This document shows, in pieces, positions 52,378-60,464 of a stretch of DNA of 64,000 nucleotides. The DNA is from Candidatus Micrarchaeota archaeon (lineage in GTDB: Archaea; Micrarchaeota; Micrarchaeia; Anstonellales; Bilamarchaeaceae): NCBI GenBank assembly GCA_014730115.1, contig WJIU01000045.1, positions 14,085 through 78,084 of the forward strand, given 5' to 3'. The translations under genes were made by a program, and so were the position numbers. The notes beneath the pieces are model-generated. The model had not been told where the DNA came from. It saw only the letters and a list, made by a program, of their open reading frames with translations, and made no database searches. Position 1 is the first letter of the stretch. The number at the start of each line of letters is the position of its first letter.

Positions 52378-52776
52378 GTGCTGAACCTGAATGGGGAGAT
52401 GGTAGCGTCCGGCTGTGAGAAAGAAGCCAGCGATGAGAAAATCATCACCCTGGTCTCCACACACGGCATTCCCGTCCTCATTGCTTCTGATACTTCTCCC
52501 CCTTCTTATTTTGTGCAGAAAATGGCAGCAAGGCTGAATGCCAGGGTATTCTCCCCTTCCGCAAGCCTCACCAGGGCCGAGAAGAAGGCTATTGGAAGGA
52601 GCATAGAGGTGGTCCATGTACGGGATGCCTATGCCGCGGCAGTAAAGGCCTACCGGCGGTATCAGAACCGCCTCAGGCAGATTGAGGCAATGGACGTAAA
52701 AGACAAGGATGAGCTGAAGATGATGATTATCGTCGGAAAAAGGGTTGGAGAAAGGATTGCCAGCCAAAACATTTAA
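52378..52776 (+). CDS. DUF460-like / RuvC-fold-like small protein (start codon unresolved)
   Basis: The ORF track starts at GTG 52378, but the conserved-looking IVGIDPGINTGYA segment is encoded in frame just upstream (52339-52377), where no ATG/GTG/TTG exists. Confidence 0.55.
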   Translation: MLNLNGEMVASGCEKEASDEKIITLVSTHGIPVLIASDTSPPSYFVQKMAARLNARVFSPSASLTRAEKKAIGRSIEVVHVRDAYAAAVKAYRRYQNRLRQIEAMDVKDKDELKMMIIVGKRVGERIASQNI

Positions 52777-52829: not shown

Positions 52830-53591
52830 TTGGCAAAAGACAGAGTTAAGAAGAAAAAGAAATCCCCTACTACAAAAAGGAGGAAAAAACCTTCTCCTAC
52901 TAAAAAGAAAAAACCTCTGAAATCAGCCGGTAAAAAGAAAGTGGCAAAGAAGAAAACAAAGGCCGCGGTAAAGAAAAGAGCAAAAAAGGCAGTCAAGAAA
53001 AGGGCCAGCAAAACAGTGAAGAAAAAGGCGGCCAGTAAAAAAACAAAACCTGCAAAAAGAAAGGAAGATGCCCCCAGGGCGCAAAAACCGAGGAGCGAAG
53101 AGGCCAGGGTAAAGAAGCAGATTACCGCAATCCTCAGTGATGCATCAGTAAGACAGATGCTTATTGAAATCGGGGGTGAAAACGCCATCGCGATTGTAAG
53201 AAATTTCTACAGCGACCACAGCGATGAGGAGCTTGCCAAGAAGCTGAAAATCAAAATCAGCGACGTAAGGGCCACTCTCAACAAGCTGCACAATGAAGGT
53301 CTTGTCAACTATCTGAGGGAAAGGGACAGCGAAACAGGTTGGTATTCCTACAGCTGGTCGCTAAACCACGAAAGAATAGAAAAATGGGCGGATGAGCAGA
53401 GCAGCAAAATAAACTCACTTTGCAGCGAAGAGGGGGAGCAGTATTACTTCTGCCCCTCCTGCGGCATGTCCACCATAATTGATTTTGAATCAGCTTCCTG
53501 CTGGGAGTTCAGATGCGAGCAATGCAACCGGTTTTTGGAATTCATTGATGAAAAGAAGATGAGCGAACTTCTTGACAAGGTTTATCTGTAA
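52830..53591 (+). CDS. tfe: transcription factor E (TFE-alpha) with about 95-aa Lys-rich N-terminal extension
   Basis: Winged helix (VRQMLIEIGGENAIAIVRNF..LAKKLKIKISDVRATLNKLHNEGLV) plus zinc ribbon (CPSCG..CEQCN). TTG start. The N-terminus is KKxK/AKK repeats. Confidence 0.82.
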   Translation: MAKDRVKKKKKSPTTKRRKKPSPTKKKKPLKSAGKKKVAKKKTKAAVKKRAKKAVKKRASKTVKKKAASKKTKPAKRKEDAPRAQKPRSEEARVKKQITAILSDASVRQMLIEIGGENAIAIVRNFYSDHSDEELAKKLKIKISDVRATLNKLHNEGLVNYLRERDSETGWYSYSWSLNHERIEKWADEQSSKINSLCSEEGEQYYFCPSCGMSTIIDFESASCWEFRCEQCNRFLEFIDEKKMSELLDKVYL

Positions 53592-53603: not shown

Positions 53604-53987
53604 TTGAAGATACAGGAACTCAACTCTTATGTGGTCCTTTTCAACAGGGACCGCTTACTTCTTCTGAAGAGAAAAAACGGCATCTGGGAGTTTCCGGGAG
53701 GCCAGGTAGAATGGGGGGAAGGCCCTGAAAAATCAGCAGTCCGGGAAACCAGGGAAGAAACCGGGCTGGTTCCGAAAAACCTGAAACTGCTGACCATCAC
53801 ATCTGCCACGTATGAAAAGGAAGGCAACCAGAAGCATTCCGTGTACATCGTATACCAGGGAGAGAGCGACGGGGACAACGTAACCCTCAGTGGGGAGCAT
53901 GAAGAGTGCCGGTGGCTCACCCTGACTGAAGCGGGCTTCATGAAAAACCTTGGCCTCAATGCAGAGGCTGTGCTGGAGGTCCTCTAG
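53604..53987 (+). CDS. NUDIX hydrolase
   Basis: Complete Nudix box GGQVEWGEGPEKSAVRETREETGL. TTG start. Confidence 0.85.
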   Translation: MKIQELNSYVVLFNRDRLLLLKRKNGIWEFPGGQVEWGEGPEKSAVRETREETGLVPKNLKLLTITSATYEKEGNQKHSVYIVYQGESDGDNVTLSGEHEECRWLTLTEAGFMKNLGLNAEAVLEVL

Positions 53988-53990
53988 CAG

Positions 53991-56576
53991 CTACATGCTC
54001 TTGAATTCCTTTATCATATCCTCAAGCTCATCAGCAGTGTAGAGCAGCAGGGACTTGCTTTCGGCCTCCATCTTGAGTATGAGGGGTGCTACGGTCGGAG
54101 ACGAATCAACCAATTCCCTGAATTTCTCTTTCTCTCCAATGTCCTTAAACACGATTATCGTTATTCCTTTCCCAATGGTATTGAGAACGCCCTCAAGCAG
54201 CTCCTTGACACGCTTCTCCCCTTCAAAGAAGTGCAGGAACATCTGCTGGCCCACCACGGTGATTACACTGTCTGCTTTTTTGGATTCTCCAAGGCCGGTG
54301 AACGGGACCGCATTATTCACGCATATGTCCCTGAGCTTTCTCATAATGGCAAGATAATCGATGGAATGCTTGGTTTTCTCCTCCCATTCGGCAAGCCCAT
54401 AGTATTCCATTGCCTCGCTAACCAGTTCCTTTTTCTCGAGCTGCTCCAGCAGGAACTCCACATTGTAATCAGTTATGAAGATGGGCCTTCCCTTGTAGAA
54501 CACCCCCTTGAAGGCACTTTTTATTTCGGAAGTGGTCAGCGGCGTGAATTCCCAGTGGTAATTTTCATTCACCTTTGAGAAAAGGCTGAGAACCACATCC
54601 TGGGAGAGAGGTATCTTGGTTCTGGCCACCGGCGGGAAGTCTGGTATGTCAAGGGAGTAGAATATTTCCTCCTGCCTTGCAAAGTAGACGCCAAAGCCTA
54701 CGATTACTGCTGTGAGAATTACGGTAACCCAGAACAGCGGGTCGGTGAAAATGCTGGGCGGGCTTTCATGCTTCACGGTAACAGTTTCCCTGAGGCCGGA
54801 AGAAACAAACTCAAACGTATGCACACCATCCGGCAGCCTCTGGTTGGTGCTGCCAGTGTAGCGCTCAAGGTCTACCCTTATTGTTGAGACATCATTGAAT
54901 TCATATGTTCCGTACCTTCCATCGTCTATTTCCAGGGAAATGGTATCAATGGTAACCGGCTGGTTGTCCATGGCAATACTGAAGACATAGGTGGAGCGCC
55001 TCCTGCTGTCCAGTCCGCGGTAGCTTACATCTATGGAGACTACATTCAGATAGGTCTGGGCATAAACCCTGCTCTGGTCGTCAATCAGCTGCATTATGTA
55101 TTCGCCTTCTTTCCCGAATATGCCAACGTCAAACGAGCGGTCGGCCTGGACGTTTACGTTTCCCTGTGGATAGGTCTCCACCTGAGAGCCGTTCTCATCC
55201 ACAAGCAACAGGAACATATTGGGCTGACCGGGCTCAGGCTCCTTCATCTCCGCGTTCAGCCTGACCGGATTGTTGGTGAGGTTTGTGGGGATTACATTTA
55301 CGCCTTCCTGGATATAGAGGTTGCTATTGGTTTCCTTTTCAAGATAGATGTAAAGGGTTTCCCTTACCGGATATTTGGATGCTGAAGATTCGCCGATGAA
55401 ATCCACCCTTACCGAAGTCCTTTTTGGCTCGAAACCCTCTGTAAAGAAATATCTTTCACCAACATAGCTGCTCTGGTTGACAAACTGGTAGGTGGTATTG
55501 GACGCAAGGGAGTTGGCCCAGGGAATCTCAAACACTATCCTTGAAATATCATTTGCAGCAAGTTCGTAATCATTTCTCCATCCGCCGTCCAGTGTCTGGG
55601 GCACAAAGACAAATGCTCCGTTGTTTCTCCGGACCACGCTGACCGAGCCGTAGGCAATCCGGCTAACCCAGGTTCCCTTGGAGCCGGCCCGGTAAAGCGG
55701 CTGGAAAAGGCTGAAATTCTGCTCGGACTGCAGAGGGGTGGTCTCATCAAATGTCACCGGCAGCTCGTTCAGCTTTTCCTTGGGGGTCGAGACCGCCAGG
55801 GTTCCATTGAGCATCTGGGTAAACGGCTGTCCGATATATATGACCACCACCCCGCGGTTGGCAAGCTTGTTCATTGAGATTCTACTGTCATAGCCAAGAA
55901 GCTCTTTGGGCACAACCCCGCTGGGCACAATCACAATCGCTCCTTCCGGAATAGTTTCAAGCTGCTTGATGCTTATCTCGTTGAGCATCACATTTCTTGA
56001 GCCCAGTCGGTGCCTGAGCTCCCTCATGAAATCAGGATATATGGATGCCTCTATTTTTTCAGAATTGAGCACAAAAACCTCGGATGGTATTTTCTGCTCA
56101 TACGGAGTGAGTATGATAGTGTAGTTGTCAAGGTTGCTGGTGTTGTACTCGACAAAAACAGCAGCACGATGATTCAGCGAGCCCCTTTGCCCCGAATTCA
56201 AGACCTCGCCCGAAACTATGGTGTTCATGAGCTCAGGCTTGTCCGCGGCCGGCTTGAACTCCTCAGGCGGAGGCGCCAGCTGGACAGTCAGGTATATCCA
56301 GGCAATTCCCAGGACAATAAGCGCAATAAGCAAAGCTGCCCCTAAAACTGCAAAGTTGAATCCTCCCGGCGGCTTGGAGGGCGCAGCCAGCGGGGCTTCT
56401 TTTTTCTTTGCCTTTTTTTCCTTTTCCTTGGATGCAAAAAGCTTGTTGAGCTCGTCCCTGATCTGCTCTAAAGGAGACCGCTCAATAACCCGGTAGTGGT
56501 TTTCATACTGATAGCGGCGCTTAATGTCGAACCTGTAGAGCTTCTTCTGGATTTTCACCTTGTCGATGTCCACCAT
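53991..56576 (-). CDS. 861-aa bitopic membrane protein (operon gene 5)
   Basis: TM at about aa 70-95 (FNFAVLGAALLIALIVLGIAWIYL). An extracytoplasmic region of about 520 aa is rich in N-x-S/T. Second TM (LFWVTVILTAVIVGFGVYFA), then a cytoplasmic domain of about 225 aa. Lies 1 nt after gene 4. Confidence 0.7.
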   Translation of the reverse strand: MVDIDKVKIQKKLYRFDIKRRYQYENHYRVIERSPLEQIRDELNKLFASKEKEKKAKKKEAPLAAPSKPPGGFNFAVLGAALLIALIVLGIAWIYLTVQLAPPPEEFKPAADKPELMNTIVSGEVLNSGQRGSLNHRAAVFVEYNTSNLDNYTIILTPYEQKIPSEVFVLNSEKIEASIYPDFMRELRHRLGSRNVMLNEISIKQLETIPEGAIVIVPSGVVPKELLGYDSRISMNKLANRGVVVIYIGQPFTQMLNGTLAVSTPKEKLNELPVTFDETTPLQSEQNFSLFQPLYRAGSKGTWVSRIAYGSVSVVRRNNGAFVFVPQTLDGGWRNDYELAANDISRIVFEIPWANSLASNTTYQFVNQSSYVGERYFFTEGFEPKRTSVRVDFIGESSASKYPVRETLYIYLEKETNSNLYIQEGVNVIPTNLTNNPVRLNAEMKEPEPGQPNMFLLLVDENGSQVETYPQGNVNVQADRSFDVGIFGKEGEYIMQLIDDQSRVYAQTYLNVVSIDVSYRGLDSRRRSTYVFSIAMDNQPVTIDTISLEIDDGRYGTYEFNDVSTIRVDLERYTGSTNQRLPDGVHTFEFVSSGLRETVTVKHESPPSIFTDPLFWVTVILTAVIVGFGVYFARQEEIFYSLDIPDFPPVARTKIPLSQDVVLSLFSKVNENYHWEFTPLTTSEIKSAFKGVFYKGRPIFITDYNVEFLLEQLEKKELVSEAMEYYGLAEWEEKTKHSIDYLAIMRKLRDICVNNAVPFTGLGESKKADSVITVVGQQMFLHFFEGEKRVKELLEGVLNTIGKGITIIVFKDIGEKEKFRELVDSSPTVAPLILKMEAESKSLLLYTADELEDMIKEFKSM

Positions 56577-56577
56577 G

Positions 56578-57369
56578 TTACCTTACGACCTCAATGTATC
56601 CTTCGCTTACAAGCTTGTTGAGAATCTCTTCAACCCTGGCCTCGGAGACCTTGTACAATCTGCTGAATTCGGTGATGTTGACTGCGCCGCTGTGCTCGGC
56701 AATCCATTCCTGGAGCTTGGATTTGAGGGCATCCTCTGAAAGGGATTCCAGCTCCTGAACCCGGAGTTTGAGCTCGTCGTTCTCTGCCTTGAGGTCATAG
56801 TTCTGGGTGGTAAGTGCCTGGACCTGCTCGGTGAGCCGGGTCACTTTTCTCTTGTAATCGCCAACCTCCTTTTTCATTGAATCATAGGCCGTGTAGAGCT
56901 TGGTGTAGTCCATGGTCACAGAATCGGAAAGGTCCTTGATGGAATTTTCAACCAGCTGGAAAAGAGTCTTGTTTTCTACTTCGTAGTTATCATCCAGCAG
57001 AGAGAGGATGTTGAACAGGTAGCGCAGTATGTCCATGCGCCTTTTTCGGGGACTGATGCCGGTCGGAATTGTATAAAGAACCTCAGTCTCATCTTCCTTT
57101 ATTTTCACGATGGAGAAAAGATAGGGGTTCTTATTGATGTCCCTGCTTTCCACATATATAACATTGATCAGGTCTTTCTCTGGTGCAATCTCAAGAAAGG
57201 AAATAGAGCGCAGAATGGGGGGGAGGTCCTTGAGCTTGCCTTTTTTCAGCTTTCCCTTGACCTTGAAGCCGTCTACCTGCGGGGGATGGGCTTCATCCCC
57301 AGCCCCGGGTTTTTTTTCTTCCGGCTTTTCTTCTTTTTTCTGGCCCATTTTCGGCAAAGGCAATGCCAT
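56578..57369 (-). CDS. coiled-coil protein with C-terminal winged-helix-like domain (operon gene 4)
   Basis: Heptad-rich KRKVTRLTEQVQALTTQNYDLKAENDELKLRVQELE, then ITEFSRLYKVSEARVEEILNKLVSEGYIEVV. Confidence 0.65.
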   Translation of the reverse strand: MALPLPKMGQKKEEKPEEKKPGAGDEAHPPQVDGFKVKGKLKKGKLKDLPPILRSISFLEIAPEKDLINVIYVESRDINKNPYLFSIVKIKEDETEVLYTIPTGISPRKRRMDILRYLFNILSLLDDNYEVENKTLFQLVENSIKDLSDSVTMDYTKLYTAYDSMKKEVGDYKRKVTRLTEQVQALTTQNYDLKAENDELKLRVQELESLSEDALKSKLQEWIAEHSGAVNITEFSRLYKVSEARVEEILNKLVSEGYIEVVR

Positions 57370-57375
57370 TCATAT

Positions 57376-57876
57376 TCACCTCTTCTTTTTCTTTGGCTTT
57401 TTCCTGGCTGGCTTCTTCTTTTTGGCCTGTGCTTTCTTTCCTGCAGGCTTTGCCGCTGCCTTCTCAGGCAGGGGCGGCTCTTCCTCAGGAGCAGGCGGGG
57501 GGGCGCCAATCACCTTGGGAACCTTGCTTTCCACTGCAGGCGCATATTTGAAAAGGGGAAGCGCAAGCACAAAAGTCCCGACAATCAGGGCCGATACTAC
57601 CGCCCACAGGTCAAAGCGTCCGGAAAGAAACAGCGCCGCAAGGACGGCAATCACCAGAAGGCCGGCAACCACGCTTGCAAAAAGTATGCTCTTTTCAAAG
57701 GACCGCCTCCTCTTCAGGTGCTCCTCCAGGTGCTCCTCGGAAACATAAAGCTCGTTCATCTGGGCAATTCCAAGTGCCTTCTTTATCGCCCGGATTGCCT
57801 TGATAATCCTGTCTTCCTTGACCTTGACAGCACGCTTTCCTTCCACGCTCTTCTGGGTTGCGATGCAGATTTTCAT
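57376..57876 (-). CDS. small two-TM protein with Pro-rich linker and poly-Lys tail (operon gene 3)
   Basis: TMs ILFASVVAGLLVIAVLAALFL and AVVSALIVGTFVLALPLF. Tail KPAGKKAQAKKKKPARKKPKKKKR. Confidence 0.6.
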   Translation of the reverse strand: MKICIATQKSVEGKRAVKVKEDRIIKAIRAIKKALGIAQMNELYVSEEHLEEHLKRRRSFEKSILFASVVAGLLVIAVLAALFLSGRFDLWAVVSALIVGTFVLALPLFKYAPAVESKVPKVIGAPPPAPEEEPPLPEKAAAKPAGKKAQAKKKKPARKKPKKKKR

Positions 57877-57881
57877 CGTAT

Positions 57882-59474
57882 CTATTCCTCAAGCACAACC
57901 TGGCTTATCTCTCTTCCGACTCCGCCGCTCTTTTTCAGGTCCACTTTTCCGAAGATGTTGATGATGGTAATGTCATCAAGCCCGGAGTCCTTGAGAAAGT
58001 CGCTGATGTTCCTGCGTGCAACCCCGTCACGCTCCAGGGTAATCACAAAGGACACCACATCGAGCCGCCGGTTGTTCTTTTCGAACATCTTGGTGATTTC
58101 CTCCACCTTGTCATCTCCCAAACCAAACTGCCTGAGTCTTCTTCTTACATCTTCCTTCAGGAATGAAACGCTTCTTGCCACTGAAATGTCCCTCCTTTGT
58201 GTTTCGGTAAGCACCTCCTTGAGTTCAAGGAAGTACTCCTTGCTGGGCTCCTCCCCCTCGATTTTCTGAAGAAGGAATGTCGAGGGATATGGAGTGGGGG
58301 TGGTCATTGAAAGGTTCACTGCCGCCTGGCCCACGCCAAGGCGGGATATCTCCTCCCTCATATAGTTGCTGAAATTCAGCGAGCCCTGGAGATAGTCCAG
58401 GAACCTTTCGAATTTGACTTTTAGAATAAACGTTGTTCCCACGTTGCTGAAGATTGCTTCGCTGATGTCGGTGGGGTTCTGGGATGCGATAATCATGCCG
58501 AAGTTGTATTTTCTTCCTTCACGCACAATCATCACTGCGTCAGAGTTGTTGTCCTTCCCTATCTTCCACGCTTCGTCGAGAACCACGATAAGCCTGAGGC
58601 CTCTTTTCCTTGCCCCTTCAATGGAGCCGGCAAGCCTCATTCTTTCTTTGATGAACTGAAGCATTGTAAGTGCGGCAAGGGCACGGGATGTCTCGTCAGG
58701 AAGGCCCACCAGGTCCAGGTCTACAAGCCCGGAAGTAACTATATCATCCAGGCTTACCGTGCTCTGCTGGGCAAAGAAGTCCTCGCCTGACTTGGTGAAC
58801 TGCTTTAACCTGTAAATTGCGTTTTCCAGCTCTGCAGGGAATTCATAGCTTCCCATCTGGGCTTCCTCGGTAAGTATGCGGACCACGTCCTTGAGCGTGG
58901 GCGGGGTAAGGGGCTTTCCAAGCTCGTCCTTCTGCTCCCGGGAGTCCATCCTGAACTTGTTTTCCAGGTATGTCTTTTCTATTGCCTGCTCGGTGAGCCT
59001 CCTCTGCTCCGGATAGTTGCCTATATCTGTGAGCAGCTCAAGGGTCCTCATGACCTGCTTGATACGGTCATAAGGCCTCATCCCCCCCAAATCCAGCAGG
59101 TTGAGGTATGAGCCGCGGCCGAGTGAAACAACCTTTCCCCCGGTCATCTTCACCCAGTTCTTGTACTCTCCTGCCCAGTCCAAAATAAGAGCATTGGAAT
59201 CCCACACAAACGAAGCCCTCAACAGGAAGGTCTTGATGAAATAAGACTTGCCTGAACCTGAAATCCCGCACACTGCAATGTGGGGGTTGGCGAGGCTTTC
59301 GTGCGTCCAGTAGAACGGAACATCGAAAATCTTGGTCCTTCCGATATAAACAGAATCCCTGGGGTCGGCAAACAGGACTTTCATGGGCGGCTCCGGCGGA
59401 TGCACCAGAATATTGCGCTTGGAAATGTCCTTGTTTGGGACCTTGGTTAGTACGAGCTTTCCTCCTAGCACCAT
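57882..59474 (-). CDS. VirB4/HerA/FtsK-superfamily P-loop ATPase (operon gene 2)
   Basis: Walker A IAVCGISGSGKSY, Walker B LIVVLDEAWK, and FGMIIASQNP. Start ATG 59474 lies 2 nt after the gene 1 stop. A C-terminal extension of about 110 aa is present. Confidence 0.85.
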   Translation of the reverse strand: MVLGGKLVLTKVPNKDISKRNILVHPPEPPMKVLFADPRDSVYIGRTKIFDVPFYWTHESLANPHIAVCGISGSGKSYFIKTFLLRASFVWDSNALILDWAGEYKNWVKMTGGKVVSLGRGSYLNLLDLGGMRPYDRIKQVMRTLELLTDIGNYPEQRRLTEQAIEKTYLENKFRMDSREQKDELGKPLTPPTLKDVVRILTEEAQMGSYEFPAELENAIYRLKQFTKSGEDFFAQQSTVSLDDIVTSGLVDLDLVGLPDETSRALAALTMLQFIKERMRLAGSIEGARKRGLRLIVVLDEAWKIGKDNNSDAVMIVREGRKYNFGMIIASQNPTDISEAIFSNVGTTFILKVKFERFLDYLQGSLNFSNYMREEISRLGVGQAAVNLSMTTPTPYPSTFLLQKIEGEEPSKEYFLELKEVLTETQRRDISVARSVSFLKEDVRRRLRQFGLGDDKVEEITKMFEKNNRRLDVVSFVITLERDGVARRNISDFLKDSGLDDITIINIFGKVDLKKSGGVGREISQVVLEE

Positions 59475-59476
59475 TT

Positions 59477-60289
59477 TCAAACCACGCTCTCTTCCAGCTC
59501 CTGCGGGCTGGTGGGATAGAATTTCTCCCACTCAAAGCACTTCAGCATCTGGTCGCCGGTAAGGTGGGTCACTTCCACGTTCAGGGCATTGCCAAGAAGG
59601 GTGCGCAGCTCATTTGACTGGGAGCGTGCTGCGGCAATAGCCGCGTCCTTGCTGAGGCCGGTTGCTGTTGTCTGGGCATATGCCATAACACCCATCGGCT
59701 TGACACCCCTGATGAGGCGCTGAAGCTGCATGTCCCAGATTGCTACTTCTCTCTCGTATTTATCAATGGTCAGAGGGTCGGCCTGGGGCTTGTCCCTTTC
59801 CCTGGCAAGCCTGAGCTGGGCCTCTGCTCTCTTGGCCTCAATGTTCCTTCTTTTCTGTGCCACATCCTCAACGTACAGCATGTAGGCAATCTTGGTTACG
59901 TGCTTGATGTTTGAGATTGCTCGCTCAAAGAACTGGTTGTATGCAATTGCATCGTCCGATGCCTTTTCAGTGGTTGACTCAAAAATCTTGATTCCGAGGA
60001 AGACCGATGCATAATAAACCCCCCCGACGTTTTTCACAATAACGTCCTGGGAGGGTGGTATCTCATAGCCCGCCCTGTCCATCATAATAATATTTGTCCT
60101 CTGGGTGATGAGAGGAATTATCATATATCCATATTTCCAGAAAAGCGCGGCACCCATTGTGCCGACAAAGCAGAGAAAGGCGCCGATAAGGCTAAAGAAA
60201 CTTCCCCCTGCTGCCAGTGAAAAGATGGCACCGACGATTCCGACTCCCAGTGAAGCATAAATGTATTTTTTTGAACTGGTACTGGTCAT
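59477..60289 (-). CDS. membrane protein with N-terminal TMs and about 200-aa soluble coiled-coil domain (operon gene 1)
   Basis: IYASLGVGIVGAIFSLAAGGSFFSLIGAFLCFVGTMGAALFW, then a soluble part containing RRNIEAKRAEAQLRLARERD. Confidence 0.65.
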   Translation of the reverse strand: MTSTSSKKYIYASLGVGIVGAIFSLAAGGSFFSLIGAFLCFVGTMGAALFWKYGYMIIPLITQRTNIIMMDRAGYEIPPSQDVIVKNVGGVYYASVFLGIKIFESTTEKASDDAIAYNQFFERAISNIKHVTKIAYMLYVEDVAQKRRNIEAKRAEAQLRLARERDKPQADPLTIDKYEREVAIWDMQLQRLIRGVKPMGVMAYAQTTATGLSKDAAIAAARSQSNELRTLLGNALNVEVTHLTGDQMLKCFEWEKFYPTSPQELEESVV

Positions 60290-60330: not shown

Positions 60331-60340
60331 CTATATAAAA
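60331..60340 (-). promoter_or_regulatory. TATA-like box upstream of the five-gene operon
   Basis: Plus strand CTATATAAAA (minus TTTTATATAG), about 40-50 nt upstream of ATG 60289 in a 175-nt divergent intergenic region. Confidence 0.4.
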
Positions 60341-60464
60341 ACCCTCTATACCCCTTATTTTATCTATTGCTGACTGAAATTGTCATAAACTCACACTAAA
60401 CGAAAGGTTTATATACATGAAAATTCACAATAAGTAACGAGAAACCAGAGTATCCCAGGTGTAA

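Follow-up and report, generated by a model that had tools for sequence, protein, structure and literature searches.

Five adjacent genes on the minus strand (positions 53991-60289) of a 64,000-nucleotide stretch of archaeal DNA, hereafter the window, appear to encode a membrane machine built around a divided motor ATPase. The host contig belongs to a metagenome-assembled genome (MAG) of Candidatus Micrarchaeota, in which the genes carry the locus tags GF318_06220-06240; they are called here g1 to g5, in the order in which the operon would be read. The g2 protein is an ATPase of the HerA/FtsK/VirB4 superfamily, g1 appears to supply the membrane anchor and N-terminal domain that g2 lacks, and the gene order is kept throughout the phylum. 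We give about an even chance to the reading in which the five genes form one membrane-embedded machine, with a split CedB/VirB4-type motor, that transports a polymer, probably nucleic acid, through the cell envelope.

The ATPase g2 (57882-59474, minus strand; 530 amino acids (aa) counted from ATG) contains a catalytic P-loop core without an N-terminal domain of its own (residues 1-428; 58191-59474, minus strand), and no transmembrane (TM) helix is found by hydropathy. The Walker A (GISGSGKS), Walker B (VVLDEAWK) and EGRK motifs are intact, and they are invariant in the family. In Pfam, g2 matches DUF87/HerA-central (E 6e-14), AAA_10 and the TraG P-loop. In NCBIfam, it matches CedD (63 bits, 1.7e-17), CedB (61 bits, 1e-16), the VirB4-like CD1110 (58 bits, 4.8e-16), VirB4_plasma (55 bits) and HerA (48 bits), all these NCBIfam scores lying far under the curated cut-offs (61 vs 700 bits for CedB, 58 vs 325 for CD1110). 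Likewise, the TIGR00929 model of VirB4_CagE gives 35 bits for a cut-off of 643, with collinear coverage of the ATPase domain. These matches and the intact motifs bear out an earlier, sequence-only reading of the window, which had placed g2 in this superfamily and had noted the near absence of an N-terminal domain. Among annotated plasmid proteins, g2 is best matched by the VirB4-like CD1110 and TraC. When the five proteins were compared with Pfam, NCBIfam, PADLOC and PHROGs, real family matches were obtained for g2 only.

Among the best 120 Micrarchaeota clusters, the identity to g2 ranges from 69 to 91%. An exhaustive search of 1.8 billion representative proteins indicates that the g2 family is small (84 clusters below 1e-30). 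The proteins that come next in this search are about 890 aa long and align with g2 at their residues ~284-653. They are single chains made of two TM helices, an N-domain of ~200 aa, the ATPase, and an end composed of a winged helix-turn-helix (wHTH) and a PD-(D/E)xK-like part. They match the NCBIfam CedB model at positions 58-587 of 590 with E 3.2e-38, and the fused CedB-like protein P0275 is 33% identical to g2 (E 8.7e-50). In the metagenomic loci that encode these ~890-aa proteins, genes for a secreted protein of ~160 aa, a two-helix protein of ~85 aa and a polytopic protein of ~300 aa precede the ATPase gene, and these upstream neighbours match NCBIfam CedA1 (down to 2.5e-20) and CedA (down to 3e-23). 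Ced-like operons with the order cedA1-like, cedA-like, CedB-like ATPase are thus present on the metagenome contigs L082-L098 (e.g. L085:6183-13605). Their neighbours include a stop-overlapping NUDIX gene, a Rad50-like ATPase, an HhH-GPD glycosylase and integrase-like genes.

The g1 protein (59477-60289, minus strand; 270 aa) is 100% identical to GF318_06240 and has 512 homologues and no Pfam family. Two TM helices are predicted (about residues 10-28 and 31-49), both termini being inside, followed by a cytoplasmic domain. The AlphaFold2 (AF2) model (predicted local distance difference test, pLDDT, 68) shows the soluble part as an alpha/beta domain with a helical hairpin. Two to three TM helices and a soluble coiled coil had been proposed at the outset; hydropathy settles the count at two, not three, and the coiled coil gives way to the alpha/beta domain with its hairpin. 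A diverse g1 profile, built from 85 sequences drawn from the loci, aligns with the N-terminus of the single-chain proteins over 241 columns covering both TM helices (hhalign probability 98%, E 2.5e-13). With a narrower alignment of close relatives, the similarity to the N-terminus of the ~890-aa proteins is only weak. Because g2 leads to the ~890-aa proteins, g1 to their TM helices and N-domain, and these proteins to CedB, g1 and g2 make up, as judged from their sequences, a split CedB/VirB4-type ATPase, with g1 as anchor and N-domain and g2 as core. CedB and CedD, which are both needed for DNA import, have the architecture TM, N-domain, ATPase (PMC11868833), and their N-domains resemble that of VirB4 (PMC11868833; PMC9905601). 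Weak independent support comes from three sides: the g1 orthologue of Ca. Micrarchaeum harzensis A_DKE aligns to positions 24-276 of 894 of a VirB4 model (E 2.2e-4), direct matches to VirB4 or CedB models are obtained with two g1 proteins in a diverse set of 22, and R388 VirB4 is among the top Foldseek matches of the g1 AF2 model, at a non-significant E of 0.1-0.3. Neither the g1 sequence nor a g1 profile found anything in the PDB. The idea of a split VirB3/VirB4-like architecture therefore stands as regards the split; the detached piece corresponds to the TM and N-domain of CedB, CedD or VirB4, and its identification with VirB3 is abandoned.

Downstream of its core, g2 carries a small, all-helical module, gX (residues 429-530 and stop codon; 57882-58190, minus strand), which is fused to the ATPase in the lineage of the window. 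In L037, L042-L052, L054-L080 and A_DKE, gX is a separate gene of 98-106 aa placed directly after that of the ATPase. The extra C-terminal module recognized from the letters of g2 is hence present, and can be redefined as a fused subunit whose counterpart in other Micrarchaeota is a separate gene of ~100 aa. A gX profile searched against the PDB gives weak helix-loop-helix matches only (EF-hand-like, 2.7e-4; Topo V HhH, 0.026). Some orthologues of the ATPase are interrupted by inteins, at about residue 75 of the ATPase, within the P-loop, in L062:6168-9311 (1047 aa) and P0242 (1196 aa), and at about residues 291-797, ahead of the Walker B region, in P0243 (1026 aa). Splicing models match at both the N- and the C-terminal ends of these inteins. 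Inteins in the P-loop or the Walker B region are a pattern typical of conserved, important proteins. In A_DKE, a separate HerA helicase of 569 aa (arCOG00285, Micr_00101; PMC8975820 supplement) is also encoded; consequently, the operon ATPase is not the sole HerA-superfamily protein of these genomes.

The distribution of the operon was studied by scanning a diverse ATPase alignment against one genome per species, which returned 239 loci, the best 80 of which are all from Micrarchaeota, and by tblastn of the five operon proteins and seven neighbours against these 80. The recovered genes keep their order and strand, and all five are present in most loci. Among the syntenic loci are the complete genomes of Ca. 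Micrarchaeum sp. A_DKE (L067) and Ca. Fermentimicrarchaeum limneticum (L054), together with Anstonellaceae (L037) and Ca. Bilamarchaeum (L008). Synteny in relatives had been named as a check in the sequence-only reading, for which a neighbourhood conserved in no relative would have been fatal; order and strand are on the contrary kept across the phylum. The flanking NUDIX, TFE, DUF460, GT4 and HD genes are common to close relatives only, and flanks vary between lineages. Identities to L001 and to A_DKE are, respectively, 85 and 51% for g2, 71 and 35% for g4, 69 and 27% for g1, and 56 and 24% for g5; g3 is 65% identical to its L001 counterpart and has no match in A_DKE, and the HD, TFE and GT4 neighbours give 59-65% in L001 and no match in A_DKE. 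In L001, g2, g4 and g1 thus exceed the flanking HD, TFE and GT4 genes. Because of this synteny and this conservation, the five-gene cluster is a core operon of the phylum, neither a chance cluster nor an island.

Several variants of the operon were met. In Micrarchaeales, the layout is g1'-g1-g2(~505 aa)-gX(~100 aa)-g3-g4-gY(~45-65 aa)-g5(~800 aa), and g1 is duplicated in some lineages. A distant relative, L106, has a g1-like gene (E 2.4e-44), an ATPase 43% identical to g2 and a g4-like gene (E 1.6e-24). Another, L108, has a similar set with weaker scores (ATPase 30% identical, g4-like E 3e-4). In these two, g4 is the sole accessory that stays beside the split ATPase. The L108 operon (L108:706-9060, Logan ERR12076115), with its g1-like, ATPase and weakly g4-like genes, is located three genes from ftsZ, itself adjoined by an SMC-like gene; this is one case. 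In the Micrarchaeota assembly GCA_028866715.1 (L110:4935-8113), a paralogous g1-like protein without TM helices (206 aa, hhalign E 2.1e-15) is paired with a short DUF87 ATPase (370 aa, P0324), and two giant Laminin_G-domain proteins (1073 and >747 aa) are encoded directly upstream of the pair.

The largest protein of the operon, g5 (53991-56576, minus strand; 861 aa), is identical to GF318_06220; its homologues are from Micrarchaeota only and it has no Pfam family. A basic cytoplasmic N-terminus (residues 1-74; 56355-56576, minus strand) is followed by TM1 (residues 75-100, hydropathy core 76-94), an outside domain of ~510 aa (residues ~101-612; 54741-56276, minus strand), TM2 (residues 613-633, hydropathy core 614-632) and a cytoplasmic domain (residues 634-861; 53994-54677, minus strand), in which a winged-helix-like pattern of secondary structure precedes an alpha/beta domain. 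The AF2 model has a pLDDT of 83 overall and >90 in the outside domain, which consists of beta-sandwich domains and one alpha/beta domain. With Foldseek against the PDB and viral libraries, the model retrieves MG domains of alpha2-macroglobulin/complement, the FnIII domains of RbmA and phage FN3/Big arrays (E 8e-8 to 1e-5), generic beta-sandwich arrays that drown out the other domains of g5. According to the model, the outside domain is therefore an elongated array of MG/FN3-like domains. The gap beneath the S-layer of A_DKE, or pseudo-periplasm, measures 20-25 nm, and by rough estimate the g5 stalk may be long enough to cross a space of this size below the Micrarchaeota S-layer. The outside part of g5 had been called sequon-rich; g5 has 8 sequons vs 5.2 +/- 2.0 in shuffled sequences, which is not significant, and all 8 fall inside the predicted outside domain. 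From its position and visible resemblance, gY of Micrarchaeales appears to equal the basic N-terminal ~60 aa of the window g5. A PDB search with the g5 sequence found nothing, nor did one with a profile of its cytoplasmic domain. Of two identities considered for g5, one was not supported and the other was rejected. Its cytoplasmic end was compared with the wHTH and PD-(D/E)xK end of the fused CedB-like proteins; the same region aligned twice, with E 0.011-0.019 and a probability <5%, which is not significant. Nor is g5 the S-layer protein of Micrarchaeota, which in A_DKE is Micr_00292 with PF05123, a family that g5 lacks.

The small membrane subunit g3 (57376-57876, minus strand; 166 aa) is composed of an N-terminal domain derived from a zinc ribbon, two TM helices (about residues 64-82 and 90-108) and a Pro/Lys-rich cytoplasmic tail; both ends are predicted to be cytoplasmic. 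The zinc ribbon, CxxC...CxxC, is found in 40 of 77 orthologues and is degenerate in the window, where the cysteines are replaced (CIAT...VSEE) within a surrounding sequence that is conserved by comparison with the orthologues in L004-L026. Hydropathy and tail composition agree with the two TM helices and basic tail first described, the orthologues having a median of 9 Lys and Arg within the final 40 residues. Pfam gives weak matches to DUF983 and DUF2721. An identification of g3 with CedA1 or CedA was considered and ruled out by hhalign probabilities <1%.

The soluble partner g4 (56578-57369, minus strand; 263 aa) has a basic disordered N-terminus, an alpha/beta domain, a coiled coil and a C-terminal winged helix, and no TM helix. 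The coiled coil and the winged helix were already apparent from the letters, and profile matches agree with them. The top match of a g4 profile in the PDB is the winged helix of the ESCRT-III protein CdvB (2xvc, E 0.0017). Weak family matches are to Pfam EAP30 (6.8e-4) and TrmB (2.7e-3) and to the NCBIfam CdvB C-terminus (0.019). The view of g3 and g4 as nucleic-acid-binding accessories is not established: the winged helix of g4 best matches a protein-binding one, and Lys tails also occur on the unrelated TFE. Compared with the C-terminus of the fused CedB-like proteins, g4, gX and g3 gave no signal. Overall, g3, g4 and g5 appear to be without known relatives.

These elements can be assembled in a mechanism. 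By analogy with VirB4, CedB and HerA, the g2 core, with gX, would form a hexameric ring, which g1 would hold against the membrane from inside the cell. In the membrane and envelope, the machine would consist of g3 and g5, g4 being a cytoplasmic adaptor, and these three proteins would occupy the place of the CedA channel and the CedA1 pilin in Ced systems. Using ATP, the machine would drive a polymer through the envelope, probably DNA or some other nucleic acid, since its closest relatives import DNA. Transport would likely be inward, bringing material from the host or the environment into a cell of reduced genome.

Several observations weigh against this proposal. Neither the window nor ~1.2 Mb of Micrarchaeota neighbourhoods yielded a polytopic channel like CedA/VirB6 or a pilin like CedA1/VirB2. 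In particular, a hidden Markov model (HMM) of CedA-like proteins had no match, up to an E of 1, among all open reading frames (ORFs) of the window and L001-L080, the CedA1 HMM had none in the same set, and hydropathy of the five proteins indicates no polytopic protein inside the operon. The g3 protein compared with CedA1-like and CedA-like profiles gives the probabilities already mentioned (0.1% for CedA1-like). On the side of the motor, direct contact with VirB4 or CedB models is confined to the two g1 proteins of 22, the g1 model is of moderate confidence and has no significant fold match with Foldseek, and concatenation of g1 and g2 leaves the match to the Sulfolobales CedB model unextended into the N-domain. 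As for the substrate, no nucleic-acid-binding domain is established in the operon, the ESCRT winged helix that g4 resembles most being a protein-binding one. Finally, in the distant relatives the operon consists of g1, the ATPase and g4 alone, the surface protein being absent, so that the original core may have its site of action on the cytoplasmic side.

These reservations give weight to other explanations. The same machine, derived from a type IV secretion system (T4SS), might handle no nucleic acid at all and instead export proteins or effectors to the host, or extract and assemble a surface filament or stalk, as VirB4 does with conjugative pilins, g5 or g3 being the component exported or assembled. 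VirB4 ATPases do power pilus biogenesis and protein secretion besides DNA transfer (PMC11868833; PMC12102498), g5 is a large surface protein of adhesin-like beta-sandwich domains, in Nanohaloarchaeota giant surface proteins with a proposed action on the host are coupled to VirB4/TraG-like ATPase domains (PMC10266531), and the paralogous pair of L110 adjoins giant Laminin_G proteins. We nevertheless regard this explanation as unlikely, since the closest characterised relatives, CedB and CedD, import DNA, g3 is not pilin-like by profile and has both ends predicted in the cytoplasm, and no candidate effector genes accompany the operon. A further possibility is an internal, membrane-tethered DNA pump, analogous to FtsK/SpoIIIE, that would clear or segregate DNA at division, with g4 as the link to the division apparatus. 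The universal conservation of the operon at a single locus in a housekeeping context would suit such a role, as would the retention, in distant relatives, of a core of g1, ATPase and g4 that lacks the surface protein, the fact that CdvB and EAP30 rank first among the matches of the g4 winged helix, and the proximity of the L108 operon to ftsZ and its SMC-like neighbour. FtsK itself is likewise a motor equipped with a TM anchor and a winged helix. Here, however, the winged helix is on a separate protein, g4, and not on the g2 chain as in FtsK gamma; g2 is nearest to the CedB/VirB4 type, and PF01580 (FtsK_SpoIIIE) matches only its residues 49-87, with 20 bits vs a cut-off of 24 (4.9e-4). In addition, the coiled-coil matches are generic, a 510-aa outside domain on g5 has no obvious need in an internal pump, and the proximity to ftsZ is a single case. 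A DNA pump of this sort thus seems quite improbable.

Two more explanations seem highly improbable. One is a mobile-element, viral-packaging or anti-phage module, such as the transfer part of an integrative and conjugative element (ICE) or plasmid, an FtsK-HerA packaging system or a HerA/DptH-type defence. It could invoke the PADLOC matches, which concern g2 only and are weak (DndH/DptH, mad8 and HerA, E about 1e-17; the partners have none), the PHROG matches to a terminase-like family, and the integrase-like genes that adjoin some Ced-like relatives. Yet synteny is fixed across the phylum, which in itself argues against a defence role, conservation is above that of the neighbours, and the G+C content of the operon equals the window average. 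Housekeeping genes make up the scanned neighbourhood, in which no integrase or other mobile-element gene, no nuclease, Sir2 or capsid family and no coupling protein or relaxase turned up, as the sequence-only reading had it for both the flanks and the lack of mobile-element genes. Viral contigs contain only distant, partial relatives, and plasmids none above ~28% identity. The other is a helicase for DNA end resection, acting in repair as in HerA-NurA. In its favour, Pfam names DUF87 the 'HerA central domain', the best PDB sequence matches of g2 include HerA (4d2i, 2.5e-9), and JGI labels some orthologues 'DNA helicase HerA-like ATPase'. The HerA models, however, match g2 only at residues ~290-390, from Walker B to the sensor stretch; g2 has no HAS-barrel N-domain, no NurA, Mre11 or Rad50 neighbour was found across the 80 loci, the partner g1 is a membrane protein and A_DKE has its separate HerA, Micr_00101. 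Taken together, these comparisons indicate that the operon is in all likelihood not a plasmid, virus, defence or HerA-NurA module.

The organization of the genes also favours the single machine proposed above. The intergenic gaps are 2, 5, 6 and 1 nt, and the ORF map thus agrees with the tight packing of five minus-strand genes reported initially. An alternative GTG start of g2 at 59531 would run into g1; because the orthologues measure 524-530 aa, the ATG was preferred. Upstream of g1, a divergent intergenic region of 175 nt contains two TTTATATA boxes, one per direction, both read from the sequence. The TATA-box-like TTTATATA at 60332-60339 (minus strand), 43 nt before the g1 ATG, is a candidate promoter of the operon, the second box being at 60408-60415 (plus strand); a sigma-70 promoter scan is not applicable to archaea. 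A Shine-Dalgarno-like GAGGG immediately precedes the g1 start. That the source is a Micrarchaeota (DPANN) archaeon is confirmed by the identity of g1 and g5 to the MAG proteins, and by the names of the close g2 homologues (Micrarchaeota, Bilamarchaeum or Bilamarchaeaceae).

At the other end, a NUDIX gene (53604-53987) is convergent with the operon and ends 3 nt from the g5 stop. A NUDIX hydrolase gene adjoins the 3' end of the operon in the window and in close relatives, and does so too in five Ced-like metagenomic loci (e.g. L085:10658-11113). A functional link between NUDIX and the operon was considered on this ground and rejected, since the NUDIX proteins of the window and of the Ced-like operons share only 26% identity, a generic similarity, and the adjacency in the window and in the Ced-like loci may be coincidence. 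Beyond it, the homologue of TFE (TFIIE alpha; 52830-53591) has an extremely Lys-rich N-terminal extension of ~100 aa. The Lys-rich tails of g3, g4, g5 and TFE look like a habit of the proteome rather than a trait of the operon. Further on, a 132-aa ORF (52378-52776) matches only positions 46-135 of 135 of the DUF460 profile, from its first residue (GTG start); it may begin further upstream or be truncated.

No description of the operon was found in the papers searched on Micrarchaeota or DPANN combined with HerA, VirB4, Ced or T4SS, the nearest parallels being the VirB4-like domain of nanohaloarchaeal giant proteins and the chromosomal T4SS of Patescibacteria. A motor of the Ced/T4SS family that is split, joined to an unrecognised set of partners and fixed as a core feature of a DPANN phylum is thus apparently undescribed. 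The supply of nucleotides, lipids and other building blocks to DPANN archaea is an open question, and no transfer machine of Micrarchaeota has been identified so far. The operon is a concrete candidate, by its synteny in the sampled genomes, its conservation above that of housekeeping neighbours and a motor from the DNA-import family of Sulfolobales, and one of its carriers, Ca. Micrarchaeum harzensis A_DKE, grows in co-culture. The operon also shows that the anchor and the catalytic core of a VirB4/CedB-type motor can be separate subunits, and that such a motor can go without any recognisable VirB6-type channel or pilin, in an arrangement that functions or at any rate endures under strong selection. 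Seen beside the T4SS of Patescibacteria, it points to a convergence of ultrasmall symbionts from the two domains on machines derived from T4SS. More tentatively, and with rather less confidence than the general reading, it can be imagined that the operon is the DPANN counterpart of the Patescibacteria T4SS, a core conduit for nucleic acid (DNA or RNA) or other macromolecules from Thermoplasmatales hosts, driven by the split CedB-type ATPase, in which g1, g3 and g5 would constitute a channel and stalk of a new type replacing VirB6/CedA and the pilin.

Among known systems, the Ced system of Sulfolobales (CedA, CedA1, CedA2, CedB, CedD, CedE) has the same motor architecture of TM helices, N-domain and HerA/VirB4-like ATPase (PMC11868833), and the CedB-like proteins of the Ced-like operons in L082-L098, in their cedA1-cedA-cedB order, are homologous to g1 and g2. 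Like Ced, the Micrarchaeota operon is chromosomal and without a relaxase. In contrast, its ATPase is split into two genes, or three or four in Micrarchaeales, and its scores with the Ced models are far below cut-offs. No CedA channel or CedA1 pilin was found nearby, g3, g4 and g5 have no Ced counterpart, and the operon, conserved across the phylum in a housekeeping context, is not a known damage-induced locus. The g2 ATPase can thus be called CedB-type remotely and in split form. The sequence-only reading would have yielded to an ATPase falling inside a described system with matching partner genes. Half of this was found: the nearest outgroup is the CedB of Ced-like operons, but the partner genes differ.

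The ATPase also appears to belong to the same superfamily clade as those of the bacterial VirB4/VirB3 type IV secretion systems and of Ted of Thermoproteales, as indicated by its best plasmid matches and by the alignment of a g1 orthologue with the N-terminal part of the VirB4 model. By its small size, two TM helices and both ends predicted in the cytoplasm, g3 presumably recalls VirB3, a likeness of topology only. VirB6, VirB8, VirB2, VirD4 and a relaxase were, however, not detected here, and the fold match of g1 to R388 VirB4 is not significant. In Patescibacteria, a relaxase-less chromosomal VirB4 system occurs in about 80% of genomes and was reported essential for epibiotic growth (PMC12102498); it was also linked to host RNA uptake (bioRxiv 10.64898/2026.06.21.733656). 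This T4SS of Patescibacteria (candidate phyla radiation, CPR) resembles the Micrarchaeota operon in being VirB4-centred, chromosomal, lineage-wide in ultrasmall host-dependent cells and apparently co-opted away from plasmid transfer (PMC12102498). It differs by the domain of life, by its MPF-FATA origin and by recognisable T4SS partners including VirB2-like pilins, of which the Micrarchaeota operon has none. Within DPANN, the 'SPEARE' proteins of Nanohaloarchaeota similarly bring together an ATPase of the VirB4 family and a large surface protein of Ig-like domains anchored in the membrane (PMC10266531). In that lineage, one chain contains both the ATPase and the giant protein, and the gene that follows is again VirB4-like; in Micrarchaeota, the ATPase stands apart and is itself split, and the surface protein measures 861 aa.

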